Below are positions 22,109-33,866 of a stretch of DNA of 64,000 bases, one piece after another. Position 1 is the first letter of the stretch. Every line of letters begins with the position of its first letter. Origin of the DNA: an uncultured bacterium (lineage in GTDB: Bacteria; Babelota; Babeliae; Babelales; Vermiphilaceae); NCBI GenBank assembly GCA_963713925.1, contig OY970212.1, forward strand, positions 320,001-384,000. Reading direction: 5' to 3'. Made by a program: the position numbers and the translations under genes. The notes under the pieces are model-generated. The model was given only the letters and a program-made list of their open reading frames with translations. It had not been told where the DNA came from and made no database searches.

Positions 22109-22789
22109 ATGAAGTATACGTTCGCAATAGCATTGAGTTTGATGTCATTTTCATCAGTATATGGGATGATGTCACGCCACATACAAGTAAGAAAAGACAC
22201 GCGTCAAAAGCAAACTCACAGAAACTTTTGTTCAAAGGTTGAGCAAAAAACAATGCTAAAAAATGGTTTGTTTCCATTTTACGATAGCTTCTTATCTGTA
22301 AAATATAAGATTGTTTGTAATCCGTTAAGTAATACTTATTTTGAACAAAAAACATCTGGTTCTTCTGTTACTTACTCATATCTCAGTCAATCAAAAGATC
22401 AGACACCAAATTCAAGTTTTACAAAAGTGAATCACCCAAGTAAAAATTTTATAGATCTCTCTAAATCGCTTAATCAAAGATTCAGAGAAATTATGTTTAC
22501 TGATGCTGCAATGTTTCTCCAACAATTGGGAGAAGCACGTTTTGGCAATGGTTTTTCTCGCGATAACATGACTGCATATGTGGAGTCTATGCCGATAGAA
22601 ATTCAAACACATTATAAACAATTATTAATAGATTTGGCTCATAAAAAACTAAAGGTGTGGAATGCAAGCATAAAAGTTGATACTGCTTTTGCAGATGTTG
22701 ATATTATAGAGAAAGGCGGTCATAATTCTCTATTTATAATTAAGGGGATTCGTACAGATATTTGTCTAGATACAAGTTGGAAATGGTAA
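22109..22789 (+). CDS. Secreted hypothetical protein with basic post-signal leader
   Basis: AAGGA then ATG 22109; MKYTFAIALSLMSFSSVYG|MMSRHIQVRK... Confidence 0.75.
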   Translation: MKYTFAIALSLMSFSSVYGMMSRHIQVRKDTRQKQTHRNFCSKVEQKTMLKNGLFPFYDSFLSVKYKIVCNPLSNTYFEQKTSGSSVTYSYLSQSKDQTPNSSFTKVNHPSKNFIDLSKSLNQRFREIMFTDAAMFLQQLGEARFGNGFSRDNMTAYVESMPIEIQTHYKQLLIDLAHKKLKVWNASIKVDTAFADVDIIEKGGHNSLFIIKGIRTDICLDTSWKW

Positions 22790-27037: not shown

Positions 27038-27475
27038 TTATTTTCGTTTCTCCAATTTCCATTCATCAAATCTATCTGAAAGTAAAGAGCTGATATAGAA
27101 AGGAACGAAAAAAACTACTACTCCGCAGACAAAAACGCACGTTGCCGTATCATCGGCAGCTCGTTCTACGGTTTTTCCGAAACTATTATCCGTGAGACGC
27201 TTCATTTCTTGGTTATTGGCTGTAAGAGTTTTTTCCAAATTTTCGAGTTTTTTATGTAATTCATCACTTGTTTTTTGGCCTTCCATAGAAGACATTTGAG
27301 AAACTTTTTTACTTTCAGTTTCTATAAACCGTTTTTGAGTATTTTGGGCCCATTGCGCCGCGTACTTTGTTCCTGAGCGATTCATAGTGTGGCGCATAAG
27401 CATAGCATGCGATGAATTGGCTATTGTGAATCCGGAAAGAATGAGCACAAGGCTCATAAGGTTGTTGATCTTCAT
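27038..27475 (-). CDS. Secreted tail-anchored protein with presequence-like leader
   Basis: AAGGA then ATG 27475; signal peptide ..SSHA|MLMRH...KRF; coiled coil; C-terminal TM. Confidence 0.8.
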   Translation of the reverse strand: MKINNLMSLVLILSGFTIANSSHAMLMRHTMNRSGTKYAAQWAQNTQKRFIETESKKVSQMSSMEGQKTSDELHKKLENLEKTLTANNQEMKRLTDNSFGKTVERAADDTATCVFVCGVVVFFVPFYISSLLSDRFDEWKLEKRK

Positions 27476-27499
27476 AATTTGTCCTTTTAGCAAGACATT

Positions 27500-27531
27500 A
27501 AAGAAAGGAGCGCATAAAGCTCCTTTCTTTT
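27500..27531. terminator. Rho-independent terminator
   Basis: aaagaaaggagc-gcataaa-gctcctttcttt. Confidence 0.7.
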
Positions 27532-27542
27532 GATTTATTTTT

Positions 27543-27965
27543 TTACTTAATCCAATCGAATTTAACAGCGGCTATTCCAACGCCACCGACGATCACTAAG
27601 CCCCCCGCGTAGCCTATCATGTAACTTTTCACCAGCCGTTCAGCATCAGATTTAGTCTTTTCAAAGGAGTCAACTTTCTTGAGTAAGGATTCCATATTTG
27701 TGTTACTTTTTTTCAACTCATTAGCTATGTTGTCTAAAGATGTCGCCATCCTTTCAGCATCATTAGAGTAGATAAATCTGGAGTCCATTTTGCCTTCCGC
27801 ATCGCGAGCGTATCTAAATCGCTTTTGAGTCTTTTGAGCTAATTGAGCAACATACTTTGTTCCCGAGCGATTTATAGTGTGGCGCATAAGCATAGCATGC
27901 GCTGAATTGGCCATCGTGAATCCGGAAATAATGAGTGCAAGGCTCATAAGGTTATTGATCTTCAT
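27543..27965 (-). CDS. Secreted tail-anchored protein with presequence-like leader (paralog)
   Basis: AAGGA then ATG 27965; first ~50 aa shared with 27038..27475; C-terminal TM YMIGYAGGLVIVGGVGIAAV. Confidence 0.8.
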   Translation of the reverse strand: MKINNLMSLALIISGFTMANSAHAMLMRHTINRSGTKYVAQLAQKTQKRFRYARDAEGKMDSRFIYSNDAERMATSLDNIANELKKSNTNMESLLKKVDSFEKTKSDAERLVKSYMIGYAGGLVIVGGVGIAAVKFDWIK

Positions 27966-28179
27966 AATATTCCTTTCGTTATGTTGATAAAATCGTCGAA
28001 ACTCTAACATTTTAAAAATGAGTTGTCATCTGCTCTTGCAGCGCTCAGCTTGGCTTGGATTAGTGTTGACTTAAAGAAAACAAAACTGTTAGAGCTACAA
28101 GTACAGTGTTTCAGATAAAAAATCCAAACATGGGCCCCAAGCAAACAACGTGCCGCTTGGGTATTATTAGGAGAAAAAC

Positions 28180-29814
28180 ATGAAAAAATTATTAAGACGG
28201 TTGCTGGTGGCTGCACTTTTAGCCGTTTGCGGCATAGCGCAAGCCGGAAATTTTGCAACGGCACTTGGCAAGTGTGTGCCATTCAATCCTGATTGTGGGT
28301 GTGAGTGTGCGGCAACAAATAAAACTTTTTTTACCGTGCGCCCGCCGTATCAACTCAACTCTCCGGAATTTATAGCAAATTTTCACAGTGACAGGCTAGA
28401 GGCCGCAGGCAAGCCATGCCGCAATGGGACAGTGCAAGTGACCCTTTTTGGTGGACAGTCAACCAAAAAGAGTAATCTTGGACGTTATTTTGGTTTTGAT
28501 TGCAGTGAGCGTTTGTATATTAATGAATCAACGACTGCAAGCAATACCGACATATTGGCAGAACAATTGAATATTTACACGGTTGGAGGAGTGACTCCGG
28601 CGACATTGGTGCCGCCGTTTTCAAGCACGATCGATCTTGAGCCGAGCTATAGTTTTGGAGGGATTGGAATCACGTGGATGCAAGAGTTTGCGCAACGCGA
28701 AGACGGGCGCTCTTGGTGGGTTCTTGTTTCTACACCGCTTACCATTGTGTCAACTACAATGAATTTGTCAGAATGCATCACGCAAAATGGTGGAGGAGTG
28801 TCTCCGGAGACGCCAAATGCAGTTGCAAATGCGACTGAAGCATTTGCGCAATCAAGCTGGCGTTTTGGGCGCATTCAACAATGCACAAAAACAAAAACCG
28901 GACTTGGCGATGTGACGTTGCTTCTCGGATATGAAATTGTTCGACATGAAGCTGTGGGAGCTGACGGATATCTTGGTATTTTGATTCCCGCCGGAAACAA
29001 AGTGCGCGGTCGCCGTATCTTTGAACCGGTTGTCGGACATAACCATCACACCGGTTTGATTTTAGGTGGTTCGGCAGACATTTTGATGTGGGAATGTGAC
29101 AATAGCAGCCTTACATTGGTGCTTGATGGCCATAGCCAATATATGCTCGAAAACTGCGAAGTGCGTTCCTTTGATTTAAAAAACAAGCCATGGTCTCGCT
29201 ATATGCAGGTGTATGCAAATCAAGCGCAAGCGCAAGAGGCGTATGATCTGAGTTTGATAGTGCCCACGAACTTTGGGAGCTTAACTCTTGGCGAGCCGGG
29301 CATTAACATTTTCACGCAACCGCTGCGTGTGCACCCCGGGCTTATTTATGTAGACAACACCGCATTCGTTTATACGTGCAATTGCTGGCAAGCTGAGGTC
29401 GGCTACAACTTTTATGCGCGTCAACAAGAATGTGTTGAGTTAGCTCGCCCATGGCAGACTGGCGCAGCATTAAAATCGTTGTTGGGCGGTGGAGCAACTG
29501 ACGGAGTGCAGATTATTGGCAACGTGTTTAACAATAATAACGAAGTTCCCTTTATTAGTTTCCCAGCAGGACCTGCACCAATCCCGGGCGTTATTAATTA
29601 TGACACCAACCTCATTAAATCGGGCGATCTCGATTTAAATTCAGCAGCTCATCCGGGCATTATCAGTAACACATTCTATGGTTCAATTGCGCATAACAGA
29701 ACGGCGTGTGATCATCCGCATTGGTTTGCGCTTGGCGGCTCCTATGAATGGGCGACAACCAATACCGTTATGAATCGTTGGACTGTGTGGCTTAAGGGTG
29801 GAGTATCTTTCTAA
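28180..29814 (+). CDS. Putative Cys-rich outer-membrane beta-barrel protein
   Basis: Signal peptide; alternating aromatic strands; terminal ...WTVWLKGGVSF; motifs shared with 44308..45735. Confidence 0.7.
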   Translation: MKKLLRRLLVAALLAVCGIAQAGNFATALGKCVPFNPDCGCECAATNKTFFTVRPPYQLNSPEFIANFHSDRLEAAGKPCRNGTVQVTLFGGQSTKKSNLGRYFGFDCSERLYINESTTASNTDILAEQLNIYTVGGVTPATLVPPFSSTIDLEPSYSFGGIGITWMQEFAQREDGRSWWVLVSTPLTIVSTTMNLSECITQNGGGVSPETPNAVANATEAFAQSSWRFGRIQQCTKTKTGLGDVTLLLGYEIVRHEAVGADGYLGILIPAGNKVRGRRIFEPVVGHNHHTGLILGGSADILMWECDNSSLTLVLDGHSQYMLENCEVRSFDLKNKPWSRYMQVYANQAQAQEAYDLSLIVPTNFGSLTLGEPGINIFTQPLRVHPGLIYVDNTAFVYTCNCWQAEVGYNFYARQQECVELARPWQTGAALKSLLGGGATDGVQIIGNVFNNNNEVPFISFPAGPAPIPGVINYDTNLIKSGDLDLNSAAHPGIISNTFYGSIAHNRTACDHPHWFALGGSYEWATTNTVMNRWTVWLKGGVSF

Positions 29815-29873
29815 CCCCAAGCTCCGTTTCCTCGAAGAGTACACGACGAAGTTGCTCTTCGCTTGGGGACCCC
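29813..29873 (-). repeat. Mini-hairpin repeat, long-loop variant
   Basis: Minus strand ggggtccccaagc...gcttggggtt. Confidence 0.75.
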
Positions 29874-29901
29874 GGAATAACAAATTAGGAATAAGGAATT
29901 T

Positions 29902-30882
29902 ATGAAATTAAAAATAATGGCGATATCAATAATTTTGCTCTTCTGCGCGCATGCGAGCGGAAGTTCTGCAGCAATTGCTCAAACTCGTTCACAAGCGAAC
30001 GCGCTTGCGGGCCAAATAGAAAAATTGATAAAAGAAGATGCAATTGGAAATGCTGATGAAATCAACGCATTGGAAAAGCAACTGCAGGGCAATATTGATT
30101 CTTTGAAACAGTTAGGTCAGCAAAAAATAGCCGGTGAACTTTCGTTACGCCTGGCTCAGATTCAGAACAATAAAAAGGAGCTTCCCGGTCAAGACGATGC
30201 GCTTAAAAGAGCACTTGATGAAAATAAGCAATTGATTGAAACACTTCGAAAGGAGTTCGCTGAAGAACAAAAACAATTTCACGAGTGTAGATCTCTTCGT
30301 GAGAAGCAAAATGAAGACATTAAAAAGAAAGATGCGGAAATTGCTGCATTAAAAGAAGATCTTAAAAAAATGCCGACGGCAACATCAGGTGCGGCACAAT
30401 CGACTACTGAGCATGAGCTTGCTCAAGCGAATGAGAAAATCAAAGAACTTCAAAAGCAAGTGATGGAAAAAATAGACCTGCAAGCCGAACTCGATCAATT
30501 AAGAGCGCAATCGCAAGCAGACGTAGGCGCTACAATCAAAGAACGACTCAAGCTGGCGGAAACAAGAGCTAATGATGCCGAAAAAAGTGAGGCCGTGGCT
30601 AAACAAGAAATAACCCGTTTGCAATCAAATATGGCTGATCAAAATGCTGAGCTGGGTCAATTGAGAGAAGCGGTCGGCAAACGACGAAGCGACATGGTAA
30701 AAAAGTTGAAAGAATATGATGCAACGCTCAAAGAATATGATGATTTGATAAAAAAATACAATACCGAGCAAAAGCCCAAAATAAAAACCGCGTTCGAAGC
30801 AATCGCAAAAATAAATAAGCAAGAAGATCGAGAGGATGCCGTCGAGCAATTTTTATCTGAATTCCTCCCCGATTTGAAATAG
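29902..30882 (+). CDS. Secreted long coiled-coil protein
   Basis: Signal peptide; K/E/Q/A-rich heptads throughout. Confidence 0.8.
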   Translation: MKLKIMAISIILLFCAHASGSSAAIAQTRSQANALAGQIEKLIKEDAIGNADEINALEKQLQGNIDSLKQLGQQKIAGELSLRLAQIQNNKKELPGQDDALKRALDENKQLIETLRKEFAEEQKQFHECRSLREKQNEDIKKKDAEIAALKEDLKKMPTATSGAAQSTTEHELAQANEKIKELQKQVMEKIDLQAELDQLRAQSQADVGATIKERLKLAETRANDAEKSEAVAKQEITRLQSNMADQNAELGQLREAVGKRRSDMVKKLKEYDATLKEYDDLIKKYNTEQKPKIKTAFEAIAKINKQEDREDAVEQFLSEFLPDLK

Positions 30883-30908
30883 AGCGCTTTATTGAAAGGA
30901 TTTAAAAA

Positions 30909-31418
30909 ATGCAAAAGATATTACTACTGTTCTGTTTGCTTGGGACTATGAATGTGTATTCAGGTCTTTTTCAAGGAATGCGAGACAAACTCGGCGAATT
31001 AAGAGAATCGTTAGCTAGCTTTCGAACAGAACTAGAGAGCGCCGAATTGCCGAAACCTACTTCAAAAAATGAACCGGCAAGTCAACTGCAAGACAATCGC
31101 GTCGCTCAGCTTGAAAAAGAGCTTGATACCATGAAAAATATTAACAAAGATCTCCTTTCAAAGTTTCCAAAGCCGGGGCAAGAAGATCCTTTGGCTAAGA
31201 AAGTAACTGAGCTGAATAATGAAATTGACAAGCTCACAAAACAGATTGCAAAAGGAGAAGATAAAAATGAAAGAGCGACAAAACTGGTCAATGAATATAC
31301 GAAGGTGATGCAGCGACAACAAGACGAACTGGAAGAAAAAAATAAGGAAATAAGATCCTGCAAAGCGCGGCTTTTGAAAGCAGAAGCAACACTAAATCCT
31401 CCGATAAAATCAAAATAA
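30909..31418 (+). CDS. Secreted coiled-coil protein
   Basis: Signal peptide; K/E-rich heptads. Confidence 0.8.
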   Translation: MQKILLLFCLLGTMNVYSGLFQGMRDKLGELRESLASFRTELESAELPKPTSKNEPASQLQDNRVAQLEKELDTMKNINKDLLSKFPKPGQEDPLAKKVTELNNEIDKLTKQIAKGEDKNERATKLVNEYTKVMQRQQDELEEKNKEIRSCKARLLKAEATLNPPIKSK

Positions 31419-31469
31419 TCATCATCCTATCAAAAAGATTAAAATTCTATATACTCTCGACTTATTGAA

Positions 31470-31508
31470 CCCTGAGTGTGATTTATTGATCACACTCAGG
31501 ATCCTTTT
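31470..31508 (+). terminator. Rho-independent terminator-like hairpin
   Basis: cctgagtgtgat-ttattg-atcacactcagg followed by atcctttt. Confidence 0.6.
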
Positions 31509-31586
31509 GATTTTGGGTCCCATGCCTTAGCATGGGCAAAATTGGCCCCGCACCGCAGTGCGGGTAAAGTAGTTTGGAGCAGTATT

Positions 31587-33185
31587 GTGTCTTTTTTAAA
31601 GAAGCTTTTCCTCGGGCTTTTGGTTTTTAATGCCGCAGCCTTTGAGTTTGATGAAATAAATTTTGATAATTTCGATCAAGCAGTTGAACCGGATATTTTT
31701 GCAACGGCAACGCGTGCGAAATTCACCCCGGCTGATATCATTGCTCTGTTGGAACAATTTGGCGCGATTGATTTGCTCAAAGAAGATTTTTTTCTAAGAT
31801 CAAGTCCTTTAAATAGAAGAAGTCTTCTTGATTATCCATTATTTATGTTTCCCTGGGATAAGCAGGGCTGTACCACGCATGGCTATCAGATCTTTTATAA
31901 TCAAACATCGGCAATGGTTTTTTCTGGTAATTGCACCAAAATCAGTTCTTATTTAGCGATTTTTCAAGGAGGTTTTGCTGAAAAATTGCAAGAAATTTTA
32001 AACCTGATCAAAGAAACTGCTCCCGATTTTGACCCTGAAGTTGCGATCGAATTGCTGACCTTGTTTGAGCATTTCACTGTCCAAGAACGTCGTTTGGGAT
32101 GCATGTTTAATTTTGAATACAATATTGATGATTGGAGATTGTGGTTTTATTTTCCTTTCTATTGGAATGTGCGTAATCACTTTGTAACGCCAGAAGTTCA
32201 AAATGCACTCGAGCATATTAGTGAACCTCTCTATGGCACGCCATGCCAAATACAGCAAGATGCATTCACTCAAGCGCATTTAATTGATGACAGGATTGGG
32301 TTTGGCGATTTTCGATTTGAGTTTGATTATCCGGTTTGCTGCTTTCCTTGGCTTGATTCTCGATTAGGCTTTTTTACAACCATACCGACGGCACTTCCAA
32401 TCGGCGGTGAAATACTCGGGACGAATTTGCATCCGCCCTGTCGTCGACAAACATTAAATTTTTCCGATCTGTTTGATAATGTGTTGGCAGGTCAAGATAT
32501 TTCAGAATCGGAAGTGGCGACTTTTTTTACCTCCGCGCTTGATAACTTATCGGCGATCTTGCTTGATTCTCGATTAGGTAATAATGGGCATATTGGCTTG
32601 GGTGTTACTTTTAAAACGTTCACCTGTTTGGGCGATTTAATCAAACGGCCATGGGCACAAGAAATTCAATGGAGAGGGCGATTTTCTGCCGAATGGCTCA
32701 CGCCGCGTCAAGAGCGTCGCTTTTTCATTCCAAATAATAATGCAGCGGCATTTCGAAATTTTGATTTTAACAATGAGGACCAAGCCTCAAAAAATTTAGA
32801 CTTCTTGATGAATACATTGACCGATCGATTGTTCCCTCAGTTTCAAGATGTGACAGTCTATCCGGGCCTTATATTGCGTTCGACATCTCGCGCAATATAT
32901 TATGGTGAAAAATGGAGTTTCTTCTTGGGCACAGATATGTGGATACAAACAGGAGATACCATTATTCAATCAAATAGAGCGGCACGACAAATACGCACCG
33001 ACGTTAAAAAATCTCAGACACAGCTTGGGTATCAAAGTAAACTCATGGCAGGAATCTCTCGTCAGCATGTGGCTCCTGAGACTGGCAGAACATGGACATT
33101 CTCCTTAAATGCTGATTCCACCTATTATAGTTCGGGCATAGGACAAGATTTTATGATAACATGTAATATGGACGTCAATTTTTAA
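31587..33185 (+). CDS. Putative outer-membrane beta-barrel protein
   Basis: GGAG then GTG 31587; signal peptide; aromatic-rich; ends MDVNF. Confidence 0.65.
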   Translation: MSFLKKLFLGLLVFNAAAFEFDEINFDNFDQAVEPDIFATATRAKFTPADIIALLEQFGAIDLLKEDFFLRSSPLNRRSLLDYPLFMFPWDKQGCTTHGYQIFYNQTSAMVFSGNCTKISSYLAIFQGGFAEKLQEILNLIKETAPDFDPEVAIELLTLFEHFTVQERRLGCMFNFEYNIDDWRLWFYFPFYWNVRNHFVTPEVQNALEHISEPLYGTPCQIQQDAFTQAHLIDDRIGFGDFRFEFDYPVCCFPWLDSRLGFFTTIPTALPIGGEILGTNLHPPCRRQTLNFSDLFDNVLAGQDISESEVATFFTSALDNLSAILLDSRLGNNGHIGLGVTFKTFTCLGDLIKRPWAQEIQWRGRFSAEWLTPRQERRFFIPNNNAAAFRNFDFNNEDQASKNLDFLMNTLTDRLFPQFQDVTVYPGLILRSTSRAIYYGEKWSFFLGTDMWIQTGDTIIQSNRAARQIRTDVKKSQTQLGYQSKLMAGISRQHVAPETGRTWTFSLNADSTYYSSGIGQDFMITCNMDVNF

Positions 33186-33194
33186 GAGGATATC

Positions 33195-33866
33195 GTGAAA
33201 AAATCTCTACTATTACTTTCGTTGTTTATGTTTTCAGTGCGAGCAGATGCTGATCTTGATCGTTATTTGAGATCAACGTCCAGCAGAGCGACGCTCGAAT
33301 CTCCGGTGCTTGCGTTGATCGATGGATTGGCAATGGGTATTGATGGTCAGAAAATCGGTTTTATGTTGCGAGTCAGAAGAGATTTGCAAAAAATACAAGG
33401 TGTGCGATCGCATGAAGATCATTCGATTTCTCACGAAGGAATTTTTGAGTTTGATGGAAAGCTTTATTCTATTCATGGGCTTGCAACTATGGAACATCTT
33501 GCTTTAGAAAATCATGATTCAGAAATGGTCGCAAGACTTCATACTATTCTTGGTGATGCGCGCAGCTATTTCTTGGCAAAAGTGAAACAGTTCATGTCGG
33601 TTGCTCGCGGTTCAAAACGTCAGATGTTGTTACTTATTGAAGAATGGTGTGCAAAGAATAAGCGAGCAAAAAGTATTTTGCTTCGCTGGGGCGGGACAAA
33701 AGACGGCGATGAAGATCGTCAATTCCATGCGGATGCAACTTCATTTATACACTTTGATGAATTTTGCACTGATCTGATATTCTTTATAGAAGATTTGATT
33801 CGCAGCTGTCCGAAGGCATTTGCACAATTTAAGCAAATGATTGAGAAGCAACAAGAAAATAAGTGA
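33195..33866 (+). CDS. Secreted hypothetical protein
   Basis: GAGGA then GTG; signal peptide ...SVRA. Confidence 0.75.
   Translation: MKKSLLLLSLFMFSVRADADLDRYLRSTSSRATLESPVLALIDGLAMGIDGQKIGFMLRVRRDLQKIQGVRSHEDHSISHEGIFEFDGKLYSIHGLATMEHLALENHDSEMVARLHTILGDARSYFLAKVKQFMSVARGSKRQMLLLIEEWCAKNKRAKSILLRWGGTKDGDEDRQFHADATSFIHFDEFCTDLIFFIEDLIRSCPKAFAQFKQMIEKQQENK

Follow-up and report, generated by a model that had tools for sequence, protein, structure and literature searches.

A duplicated bipartite leader in a Babelota bacterium: a predicted secretion signal followed by a presequence-like segment

The leaders of proteins bound for complex plastids and the apicoplast are bipartite: a signal peptide is followed by a basic, acid-poor transit segment. 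These leaders are host-encoded, routed through the endoplasmic reticulum (ER) and plastid-bound, and they have Phe, not Met, at position +1. Among bacterial effectors, EspF and Map of enteropathogenic Escherichia coli (EPEC) have an N-terminal mitochondrial signal. So does Ats-1 of Anaplasma, which is imported and then cleaved in the matrix or inner membrane (PMC2824752). CTP1-3 of the rust fungus Melampsora and LOCALIZER-type effectors form modular, polymorphic families with a secretion signal and then an organelle-targeting peptide that becomes exposed when the signal is removed and is cleaved after import (10.1101/019521, PMC5353544), and in the Candidatus Liberibacter protein Las5315 a Sec signal peptide directly precedes a predicted organelle-targeting peptide (PMC4933711). 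Here we describe leaders of a similar plan on two adjacent genes, which we call A and B, in a 64,000-nt stretch of DNA (hereafter the window) from an uncultured bacterium of the Babelota (GenBank assembly GCA_963713925.1, contig OY970212.1, positions 320,001 to 384,000). We consider it reasonably probable that these leaders are a two-step address, in which a predicted Sec signal hides a presequence-like segment that would be read by the mitochondria of a host cell.

The window sits within a single 1.32-Mb contig of its genome, G000, whose completeness of 95.75% sets the scope of our statements about absent genes. The G000 gene set resembles those of published Dependentiae, with ATP/ADP translocases, parts of a type II secretion system (T2SS) and no match found to TatC, FHIPEP or VirB4. 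According to published descriptions, Dependentiae are obligate intracellular parasites of protists in which the T2SS is the sole secretion system detected (PMC4378268, PMC4776705), and up to 44% of their proteins have signal peptides (PMC6561590). One isolate, Chromulinavorax, sheds vesicles and is wrapped by an expanding, intact host mitochondrion, which it remodels (PMC6561590).

Genes A and B lie in tandem on the minus strand, each with the ribosome-binding-site (RBS)-like motif AAGGA 5-6 nt before its ATG (27482..27486 for A, 27971..27975 for B). Gene B (27543..27965, 140 amino acids) starts with a signal-peptide-like segment that ends in A-H-A (residues 1-24; 27894..27965), followed by a presequence-like segment that runs from a Met to the motif KRF and has six basic and no acidic residues (residues 25-50; 27816..27893). 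Downstream are a coiled coil (about residues 69-112; 27630..27761), homologous to the coil of a protein from another organism, P0141, and a Gly/Ala/Val-rich hydrophobic helix (residues 116-134; 27564..27620). Gene A (27038..27475, 145 amino acids from the ATG) has the same architecture, plus a basic C-terminal tail after its hydrophobic helix (residues 114-132; 27080..27136). Its signal-peptide-like segment ends in S-H-A (residues 1-24; 27404..27475), and its presequence-like segment, again from Met to KRF, has five basic and no acidic residues (residues 25-50; 27326..27403).

The original prediction, which was made from the letters of the window, had described these leaders as a signal peptide, a new Met and a stretch with 5-6 Arg/Lys and no Asp/Glu, and the sequence bears this out. 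It had also assigned both proteins a C-terminal transmembrane helix. A hydrophobic helix is indeed present in both, but it is marginal: the best 19-residue segments score +0.4 and +1.8 on a Hessa-type scale (on which more negative values mean stronger anchors), compared to -0.5 to -5.7 for the anchors of 28 housekeeping stomatins. The parts that follow KRF had been called divergent, which holds for the DNA, where identity collapses, but less so for the proteins, because the coiled coils of A and B are faintly alike (alignment score 36, shuffle mean 25.5, p=0.04). Between the coils of B and P0141 the score is 103 (p=0.001).

The leader has the properties of a copied module. Counted without gaps from the ATG, 131 of 150 nt are identical between A and B over 50 codons, and successive 30-nt blocks have 27, 27, 29, 24, 24, and then 9, 7, 11, 13 and 10 identities; in the 30 nt before the ATG there are 12. 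Similarity begins at the start codon and, as had been noted, stops at KRF, where it falls from 24/30 to 9/30. Because synonymous divergence over the whole leader is unsaturated (pS 0.34) while the remainder of A and B is barely alignable, the leader appears to have been copied or homogenised as a unit. Within residues 25-50, synonymous differences (pS 0.49) far outnumber nonsynonymous ones (pN 0.06), which indicates purifying selection on the peptide of the basic segment. A second tandem pair in the same genome, G000:598888/599286, has residues 1-35 in common (pN 0.00) and then diverges. A third copy of the A/B leader is found in P0141, a 133-residue protein encoded on a 1.8-kb contig, which retains Met+1 and RSGTKY..Q.AQ.TQKRF, that is, most of the basic segment.

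By searching 1.84 billion proteins with A and B we obtained A, B, P0141 and P0142 as the four matches at E<=0.001. The last is a 985-residue repeat protein, and we rejected it as a match due to chance. From a 90% library only A, B and P0141 emerged among 1470 candidates, and 30 relatives contained nothing that matched A or B convincingly (best E 1.5e-4, with stops). Neither A and B nor six small hydrophobic proteins of the class described below have a Pfam family over the cut-off; this includes the DUF1640/CCDC90-like coiled coil plus anchor, which we take to be a look-alike of A and B. The ESM Atlas had no usable match for gene B or G000:61376, and matches in two soil contig sets cover only the flanks of the locus. 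A single-sequence AlphaFold model of the mature gene B protein has two long helices, at low confidence (predicted local distance difference test, pLDDT, 61.8). We considered an internal start codon at Met25 and rejected it, there being by eye no ribosome-site-like motif before Met25 in A or B. Between the stop codon of B and the ribosome site of A is a 12-pair terminator-like hairpin (27500..27530; one found, 1.0 expected by chance), which is flanked on both sides by T/A runs and could attenuate A relative to B. A promoter scan reached only chance level, and an Rfam scan of the whole window had no match.

Leaders of this design are not confined to A and B. We collected the open reading frames (ORFs) of G000 in which a signal peptide is followed by Met and the gene is preceded by an RBS-like motif, and then divided them by charge over the first 20 residues only; signal peptides were called with our own heuristic scan, not SignalP, and the calls are partly circular with the selection of the class. 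Among 71 such signal+Met ORFs, 24 start acidic and 18 are basic and acid-poor. The latter form what we call the class. Two more proteins, G000:262990 (an M48 peptidase) and G000:1303680, match the design by eye and lie outside the 18, and the predicted design is carried by about 18-20 G000 proteins. About seven class members are small proteins with weak Gly/Ala-rich later helices, like A and B, and about ten of the 18 have no later membrane helix. One of the soluble members is the third in the window (22109..22789, plus strand, 226 amino acids, no Pfam match); its presequence-like segment comprises residues 20-40 (22166..22228, plus strand), and its leader ends R-N-F-C-S.

Mitochondrial processing peptidase (MPP) and Icp55 cut presequences in two steps that follow R-2 and R-3 rules, with an aromatic residue at +1 and a site of the type R-x-[FYL]-[SA] (PMC3673636). 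Within their first 50 residues, 6 of the 18 class members and none of the 53 other signal+Met ORFs contain this canonical motif. We compared the observed count to shuffled sequences, whose mean was 1.70 (p=0.0044); when the acid-poor segment alone was shuffled the expectation was 1.47 (p=0.0022). The corresponding Lys control, K.[FYL][SA], was at chance level (1/18, shuffle 1.51). A looser motif, which was defined post hoc, occurs in 13/18 against a shuffle value of 4.37. Arg is present at positions 2-6 in 14/18 class members compared to 7/53 of the others, and position 2 is Leu, Met, Ile or Phe in 14/18. For one member, G000:1132631, the cleavage site was placed by hand at the first Met for the motif and leader measurements.

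Two loci with leaders of this design have features of their own. At G000:C1:1303680-1305208 (L023, L179), a leader-bearing paralogue of G000:105896 has a leader ORF that stops after 50 residues, and homology resumes in another frame, so this is either a broken gene or an assembly error. The class member at G000:C1:1031113-1031946 (L018) has a basic start, a weak hydrophobic stretch, a long coiled coil and no Arg motif; our guess is that it could have an outer-membrane or mitofilin-like topology.

The cargo of the leaders includes recognizable families. Pfam domains over the cut-off were found in 4 of 17 class proteins: Band_7 (the stomatin G000:1213929), Peptidase_M48, AAA+Lon_lid with no protease domain (G000:787691), and DnaJ. 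Leaderless housekeeping copies of Lon (two), DnaJ and QmcA are also present in G000. Their eukaryotic counterparts SLP-2, OMA1, LONP1 and J-proteins work at the mitochondrial inner membrane or inside the matrix, and SLP-2 (STOML2) has a presequence-like leader in place of the N-terminal anchor.

The stomatins allowed a test in which proteins were selected by homology and not by charge. We took the ten best matches to the leader-bearing stomatin, query included. They form a clade (support 100/98) that is separate from 28 housekeeping QmcA proteins of Babelota and from 10 outgroup rows. In 10/10 a signal peptide is followed by Met and a leader 18-47 residues long (the leader of P0003 has 24 residues, not the 18 obtained from a Met six residues further on). 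The leaders contain 4 Asp/Glu in about 297 residues, compared to 15.8% in the cores. In nine of the ten, R-x-[FYL] precedes the first conserved SPFH motif by 21 residues, and the tenth has R-K-M at this place. Met+1 and the junction Arg are the only conserved residues in the leader alignment, in a clade whose members are 50-60% identical. A search of the phylum for stomatins matched 112 of 151 genomes; among the 31 stomatins listed, 28 have an N-terminal membrane anchor, including the G000 housekeeping copy, and three have a leader (G000, G070 of family f11, and G079 of family f16, which is on a long separate branch). The clade appears to have replaced its membrane anchor by such leaders. The long-branch stomatin L054 has a leader of like kind. 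We rejected a host origin for the leader-bearing stomatin: its closest matches are bacterial QmcA types, though the tree was built without eukaryotic SLP-2.

The other families are more uneven. M48 homologs occur in 11 other genomes of 200; nine of the relatives have a visible N-terminus, of which six satisfy the charge filter and a seventh has R-A-F-S. For the family of G000:195948, which has no Pfam match, there are relatives with a signal peptide in 14 other genomes of 200, none of which passes the leader scan. In G064, the relative of G000:105896 has an acidic start. None of 18 matches to the Lon-AAA+ member is a close relative with a leader, and P0136 has a signal peptide without the Met-led basic segment. 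Because homologous families in other genomes are apparently secreted without it, the segment looks like an add-on between signal peptide and cargo. G000:C1:195948 and 198464 (L159, L174) are a pair of leader-bearing paralogues with a conserved helical domain and long Gly/Ser/Cys-rich tails, and in G172:C77 (L160/L176) four or more secreted paralogues of the 195948 domain stand in tandem.

These comparisons bear on whether the basic segment might be a second export or entry signal instead of a mitochondrial address. Candidates are a propeptide or a cationic peptide for crossing a membrane (in T2SS export, vesicle sorting or passage out of a vacuole), which a bacterial or host protease would cut at the Arg-aromatic site. 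Such a role would fill a real gap, since the step from periplasm to host cytosol lacks an explanation when the T2SS is the only system found (PMC4378268 for the vacuole). Targeting peptides are physico-chemically similar to cationic amphipathic peptides that serve other functions (PMC7463930), and a conserved Arg-x-aromatic would suit any Arg-directed protease. But most secreted proteins of G000, and signal-bearing homologs of the cargo elsewhere, do without the segment, so export does not appear to need it, and this proposal does not account for the fixed Met+1, the Ser/Ala after the aromatic residue or the preference for Arg over Lys. We regard it as unlikely.

The predicted signal peptides of the class look like ordinary ones. 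Their n-region charge is at least +1 in 18/18, and their hydrophobic segments are like those of other G000 signal peptides in length and hydrophobicity (Mann-Whitney p 0.26-0.56), scoring +1.6 to +8.7 compared to -0.5 to -5.7 for anchors. Among 26 lipobox candidates, five are at +2 or more, one of them an OmpA-family lipoprotein with a net charge of +5 in its first 18 mature residues, which suggests that basic mature N-termini can be exported in this organism. G000 encodes signal peptidase I (SPase I), GspC, two secretins, two Omp85 proteins and ATP/ADP translocases. We found no match in G000 to TatC, FHIPEP or VirB4. The leaders do not resemble substrates of twin-arginine translocation (Tat), given that TatC was not found and that the basic residues follow the signal peptide instead of lying inside it. 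Nor do they fit delivery by a type IV or type III secretion system (T4SS, T3SS) in the manner of Ats-1 or EspF, because a signal peptide precedes the basic segment and FHIPEP and VirB4 were not found.

Alternatively, the first segment could be an uncleaved, reversed signal anchor and the basic segment a positive-inside spacer behind it, so that the cargo would remain in the cytoplasm of the bacterium. In housekeeping QmcA the SPFH domain is preceded by an N-terminal anchor, and in the bacterial cytoplasm the Lon-AAA+, J-domain and stomatin domains would find partners. The periplasm offers neither the ATP nor the Hsp70 on which ATPase and J-domain cargoes depend, and positive charge after a signal peptide favours retention. 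About seven class members also have later hydrophobic helices. Against this arrangement, the hydrophobic segments are short, have basic n-regions in all 18 cases and score as signal peptides instead of anchors; about ten members have no later membrane helix at all. A spacer would not be expected to be an acid-free stretch of up to 47 residues that ends at a fixed Arg-x-aromatic far from the membrane, nor to begin with Met directly after a peptidase-type site in 10/10 stomatins. We judge a reversed anchor to be decidedly unlikely.

The N-termini that predicted cleavage would expose have two other regularities. Over about 250 signal+Met ORFs of G000 and the sampled relatives, the residue at -1 before the Met is Pro in 21 and Thr in 17, which is unusual for SPase I (for example, L-Y-P precedes M in the stomatin clade). 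In 85 of about 250, position 2 after the signal peptide is Asp or Glu. Starts of the forms M-D/M-E and A/S-D/E resemble eukaryotic N-termini of the N-acetylation type, and the many secreted proteins that appear to start this way may mimic host cytosolic N-termini.

Outside G000 the class is patchily distributed. We sampled 14 relatives, taking 100-200 kb from each and a further 400 kb from G009 (2.4 Mb pooled). Of the signal+Met ORFs, 7 of 23 belong to the class in the first 200 kb of G009, 2 of 29 in G094 and 2 of 12 in G100, and there is one class member in each of the samples of G146, G064, G136, G017 and G149. Some of these calls, in G100 and G149, are prepilin-like false positives, and were retained in the pooled counts for the relatives. 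Several G009 members are presequence-like by eye. Leader-type N-termini in G009 are found on a PLD-like domain protein (L064:4242-5108) and an ankyrin protein (L059:12865-13635). The class is thus abundant in G000 and patchy across the phylum.

The relatives bring us to the points that weigh against a mitochondrial address. Samples of six of them (G057, G028, G058, G042, G014 and G140) contain no class member. The canonical motif did not replicate in the fresh G009 stretch (200-600 kb), where it occurs in none of three class members, and in the pooled non-G000 samples it is present in 3/19 against 1.31 expected (p=0.13), with 6/19 against 3.29 for the loose motif (p=0.07). The 18 G000 members include paralogous pairs, so they are not fully independent, and Met follows the signal peptide only modestly more often than in shuffles (72 compared to 56, in 547 signal-like N-termini). 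Neither A nor B has the canonical R-3 motif: their junctions are K-R-F-I-E-T, which satisfies only the looser R-2 rule and has a bulky +1, and K-R-F-R-Y-A, and that of P0141 is K-R-F-F-N. Amphipathicity in the class is modest (mean hydrophobic moment percentile relative to shuffles 0.64, with A at 0.83, B at 0.82 and other signal+Met ORFs at 0.56). In M48 relatives the junction-like motif mostly has Lys (KKLFS, KKIFS), not Arg. The leader stomatins derive from bacterial QmcA-type proteins, so a role in the bacterium is also possible. In Gram-negative bacteria Sec export is impeded by positive charge right behind the signal peptide, and the T2SS exports folded proteins, not membrane proteins. 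Given these cargo limits and the growth of Babela in a vacuole (PMC4378268), delivery to the host cytosol is unexplained.

Some of these points could instead mean that the segment addresses another host compartment, such as plastid, nucleus or hydrogenosome, or that it is a compositional look-alike amplified by local duplication. The motif statistic was not reproduced in relatives, the putative hosts include algae (PMC12172432), and rust CTP1 reaches both chloroplasts and mitochondria (10.1101/019521). However, purifying selection, together with Met and Arg residues conserved across a clade of 50-60% identity, excludes chance for at least these families. An early Arg, a start with M-L/M/F/I and an end in R-x-[FY]-S are typical of mitochondrial and not of plastid targeting. 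The last of these corresponds to the motif of mitochondrial processing (PMC3673636). We therefore consider both versions very improbable. The two-step mitochondrial address that was originally predicted is thus upheld in part: the motif excess of the class in G000, the stomatin Met+1 and Arg, and the mitochondrial type of the cargo speak for it, whereas the R-2-like junctions of A and B, their modest moment and the failure of the motif excess to recur outside G000 do not.

If the leader is a mitochondrial address, it might work as follows. The Sec pathway would export the protein, and SPase I would cleave it after residue 24, regenerating an N-terminal Met. The mature protein would then leave through the T2SS or in outer-membrane vesicles and reach the host cytosol, which is the weakest step of the proposal. 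Finally, it would be imported by the TOM and TIM23 translocases and cut by MPP near the junction Arg, with Icp55 trimming those members that have R-x-[FYL]-[SA]. For A and B the outcome would be small inner-membrane proteins with a coiled coil in the matrix and a weak C-terminal anchor, and the soluble members (the stomatin/SLP-2-like SPFH protein, the protease-less Lon AAA+ and the J-domain protein) would function either in the matrix or on the inner membrane; an M48 peptidase of the OMA1/HtpX family would also be among the cargo. Mitochondrial proteostasis and shape would probably be retuned to benefit a parasite that imports ATP. We are evenly divided on the broader proposal that some Dependentiae lineages have a dedicated mitochondrial effector pathway without an injection machine, in which a Sec signal would conceal a eukaryotic-type presequence with a start Met and an MPP/Icp55 site of its own, the module is copied onto new genes, and bacterial homologs of the host's inner-membrane quality-control proteins–stomatin/SLP-2, OMA1-like M48, Lon AAA+ and J-protein–are retargeted to the host mitochondrion.

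Dependentiae are widespread as intracellular parasites of protists, and one isolate remodels the mitochondrion of its host (PMC6561590). An address that can be read from sequence would, if true, give a short list of candidate mitochondrial effectors for this mitochondrion-remodelling phylum. It would also mean that proteins can cross five or six membranes by way of Sec plus the T2SS or vesicles, and would provide a present-day case in which presequences are gained through duplicated leaders and a bacterial QmcA has convergently come to resemble mitochondrial SLP-2 in design.

Next to genes A and B, the window contains a run of signal-peptide-bearing orphans without an informative Pfam match (28180-33866, plus strand). 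It includes two large proteins, of 544 and 547 amino acids, whose last residue is aromatic as in beta-barrels, and two proteins with coiled coils.

We found no report of such leaders in Dependentiae in the literature searched, which covered few subscription journals. The combination of a signal peptide with an organelle transit peptide is already known, and so are cleavable mitochondrial signals on bacterial effectors. Ats-1, EspF and Map differ from the proteins described here in that they are delivered by a T4SS or T3SS and have the presequence at the native N-terminus, whereas the Babelota segment lies behind a Sec signal. The CTP1-3 effectors are secreted through the eukaryotic ER and go mainly to the chloroplast stroma (10.1101/019521, PMC5353544); the Babelota leaders belong to a diderm bacterium with Sec and a T2SS, and have a predicted mitochondrial R-2/R-3-type site and a putatively regenerated Met+1. 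Las5315 is a single, chloroplast-associated protein, and no Met+1 convention is described for it (PMC4933711), in contrast to about 18-20 proteins in one genome, a clade across families and a mitochondrial processing motif. Presequences processed by MPP and Icp55 resemble the leaders in their Met start, basic and acid-free composition, variable length and sequence, Arg at -2/-3 and aromatic +1 (PMC3673636), but the Babelota segments are bacterium-encoded, are rich in Gln (12.7%) and in Lys besides Arg, and have modest amphipathicity. The SPFH/Band 7 core of the leader-bearing stomatin is about 50% identical to QmcA-type proteins (QmcA/YbbK, PDB 8z5g), and its clade stands beside the housekeeping QmcA of Babelota as a separate group. 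What is new relative to these systems is the Met-regenerating design, its presence on about 18-20 proteins of one bacterial genome, the stomatin clade that extends across families, and the set of cargo proteins.

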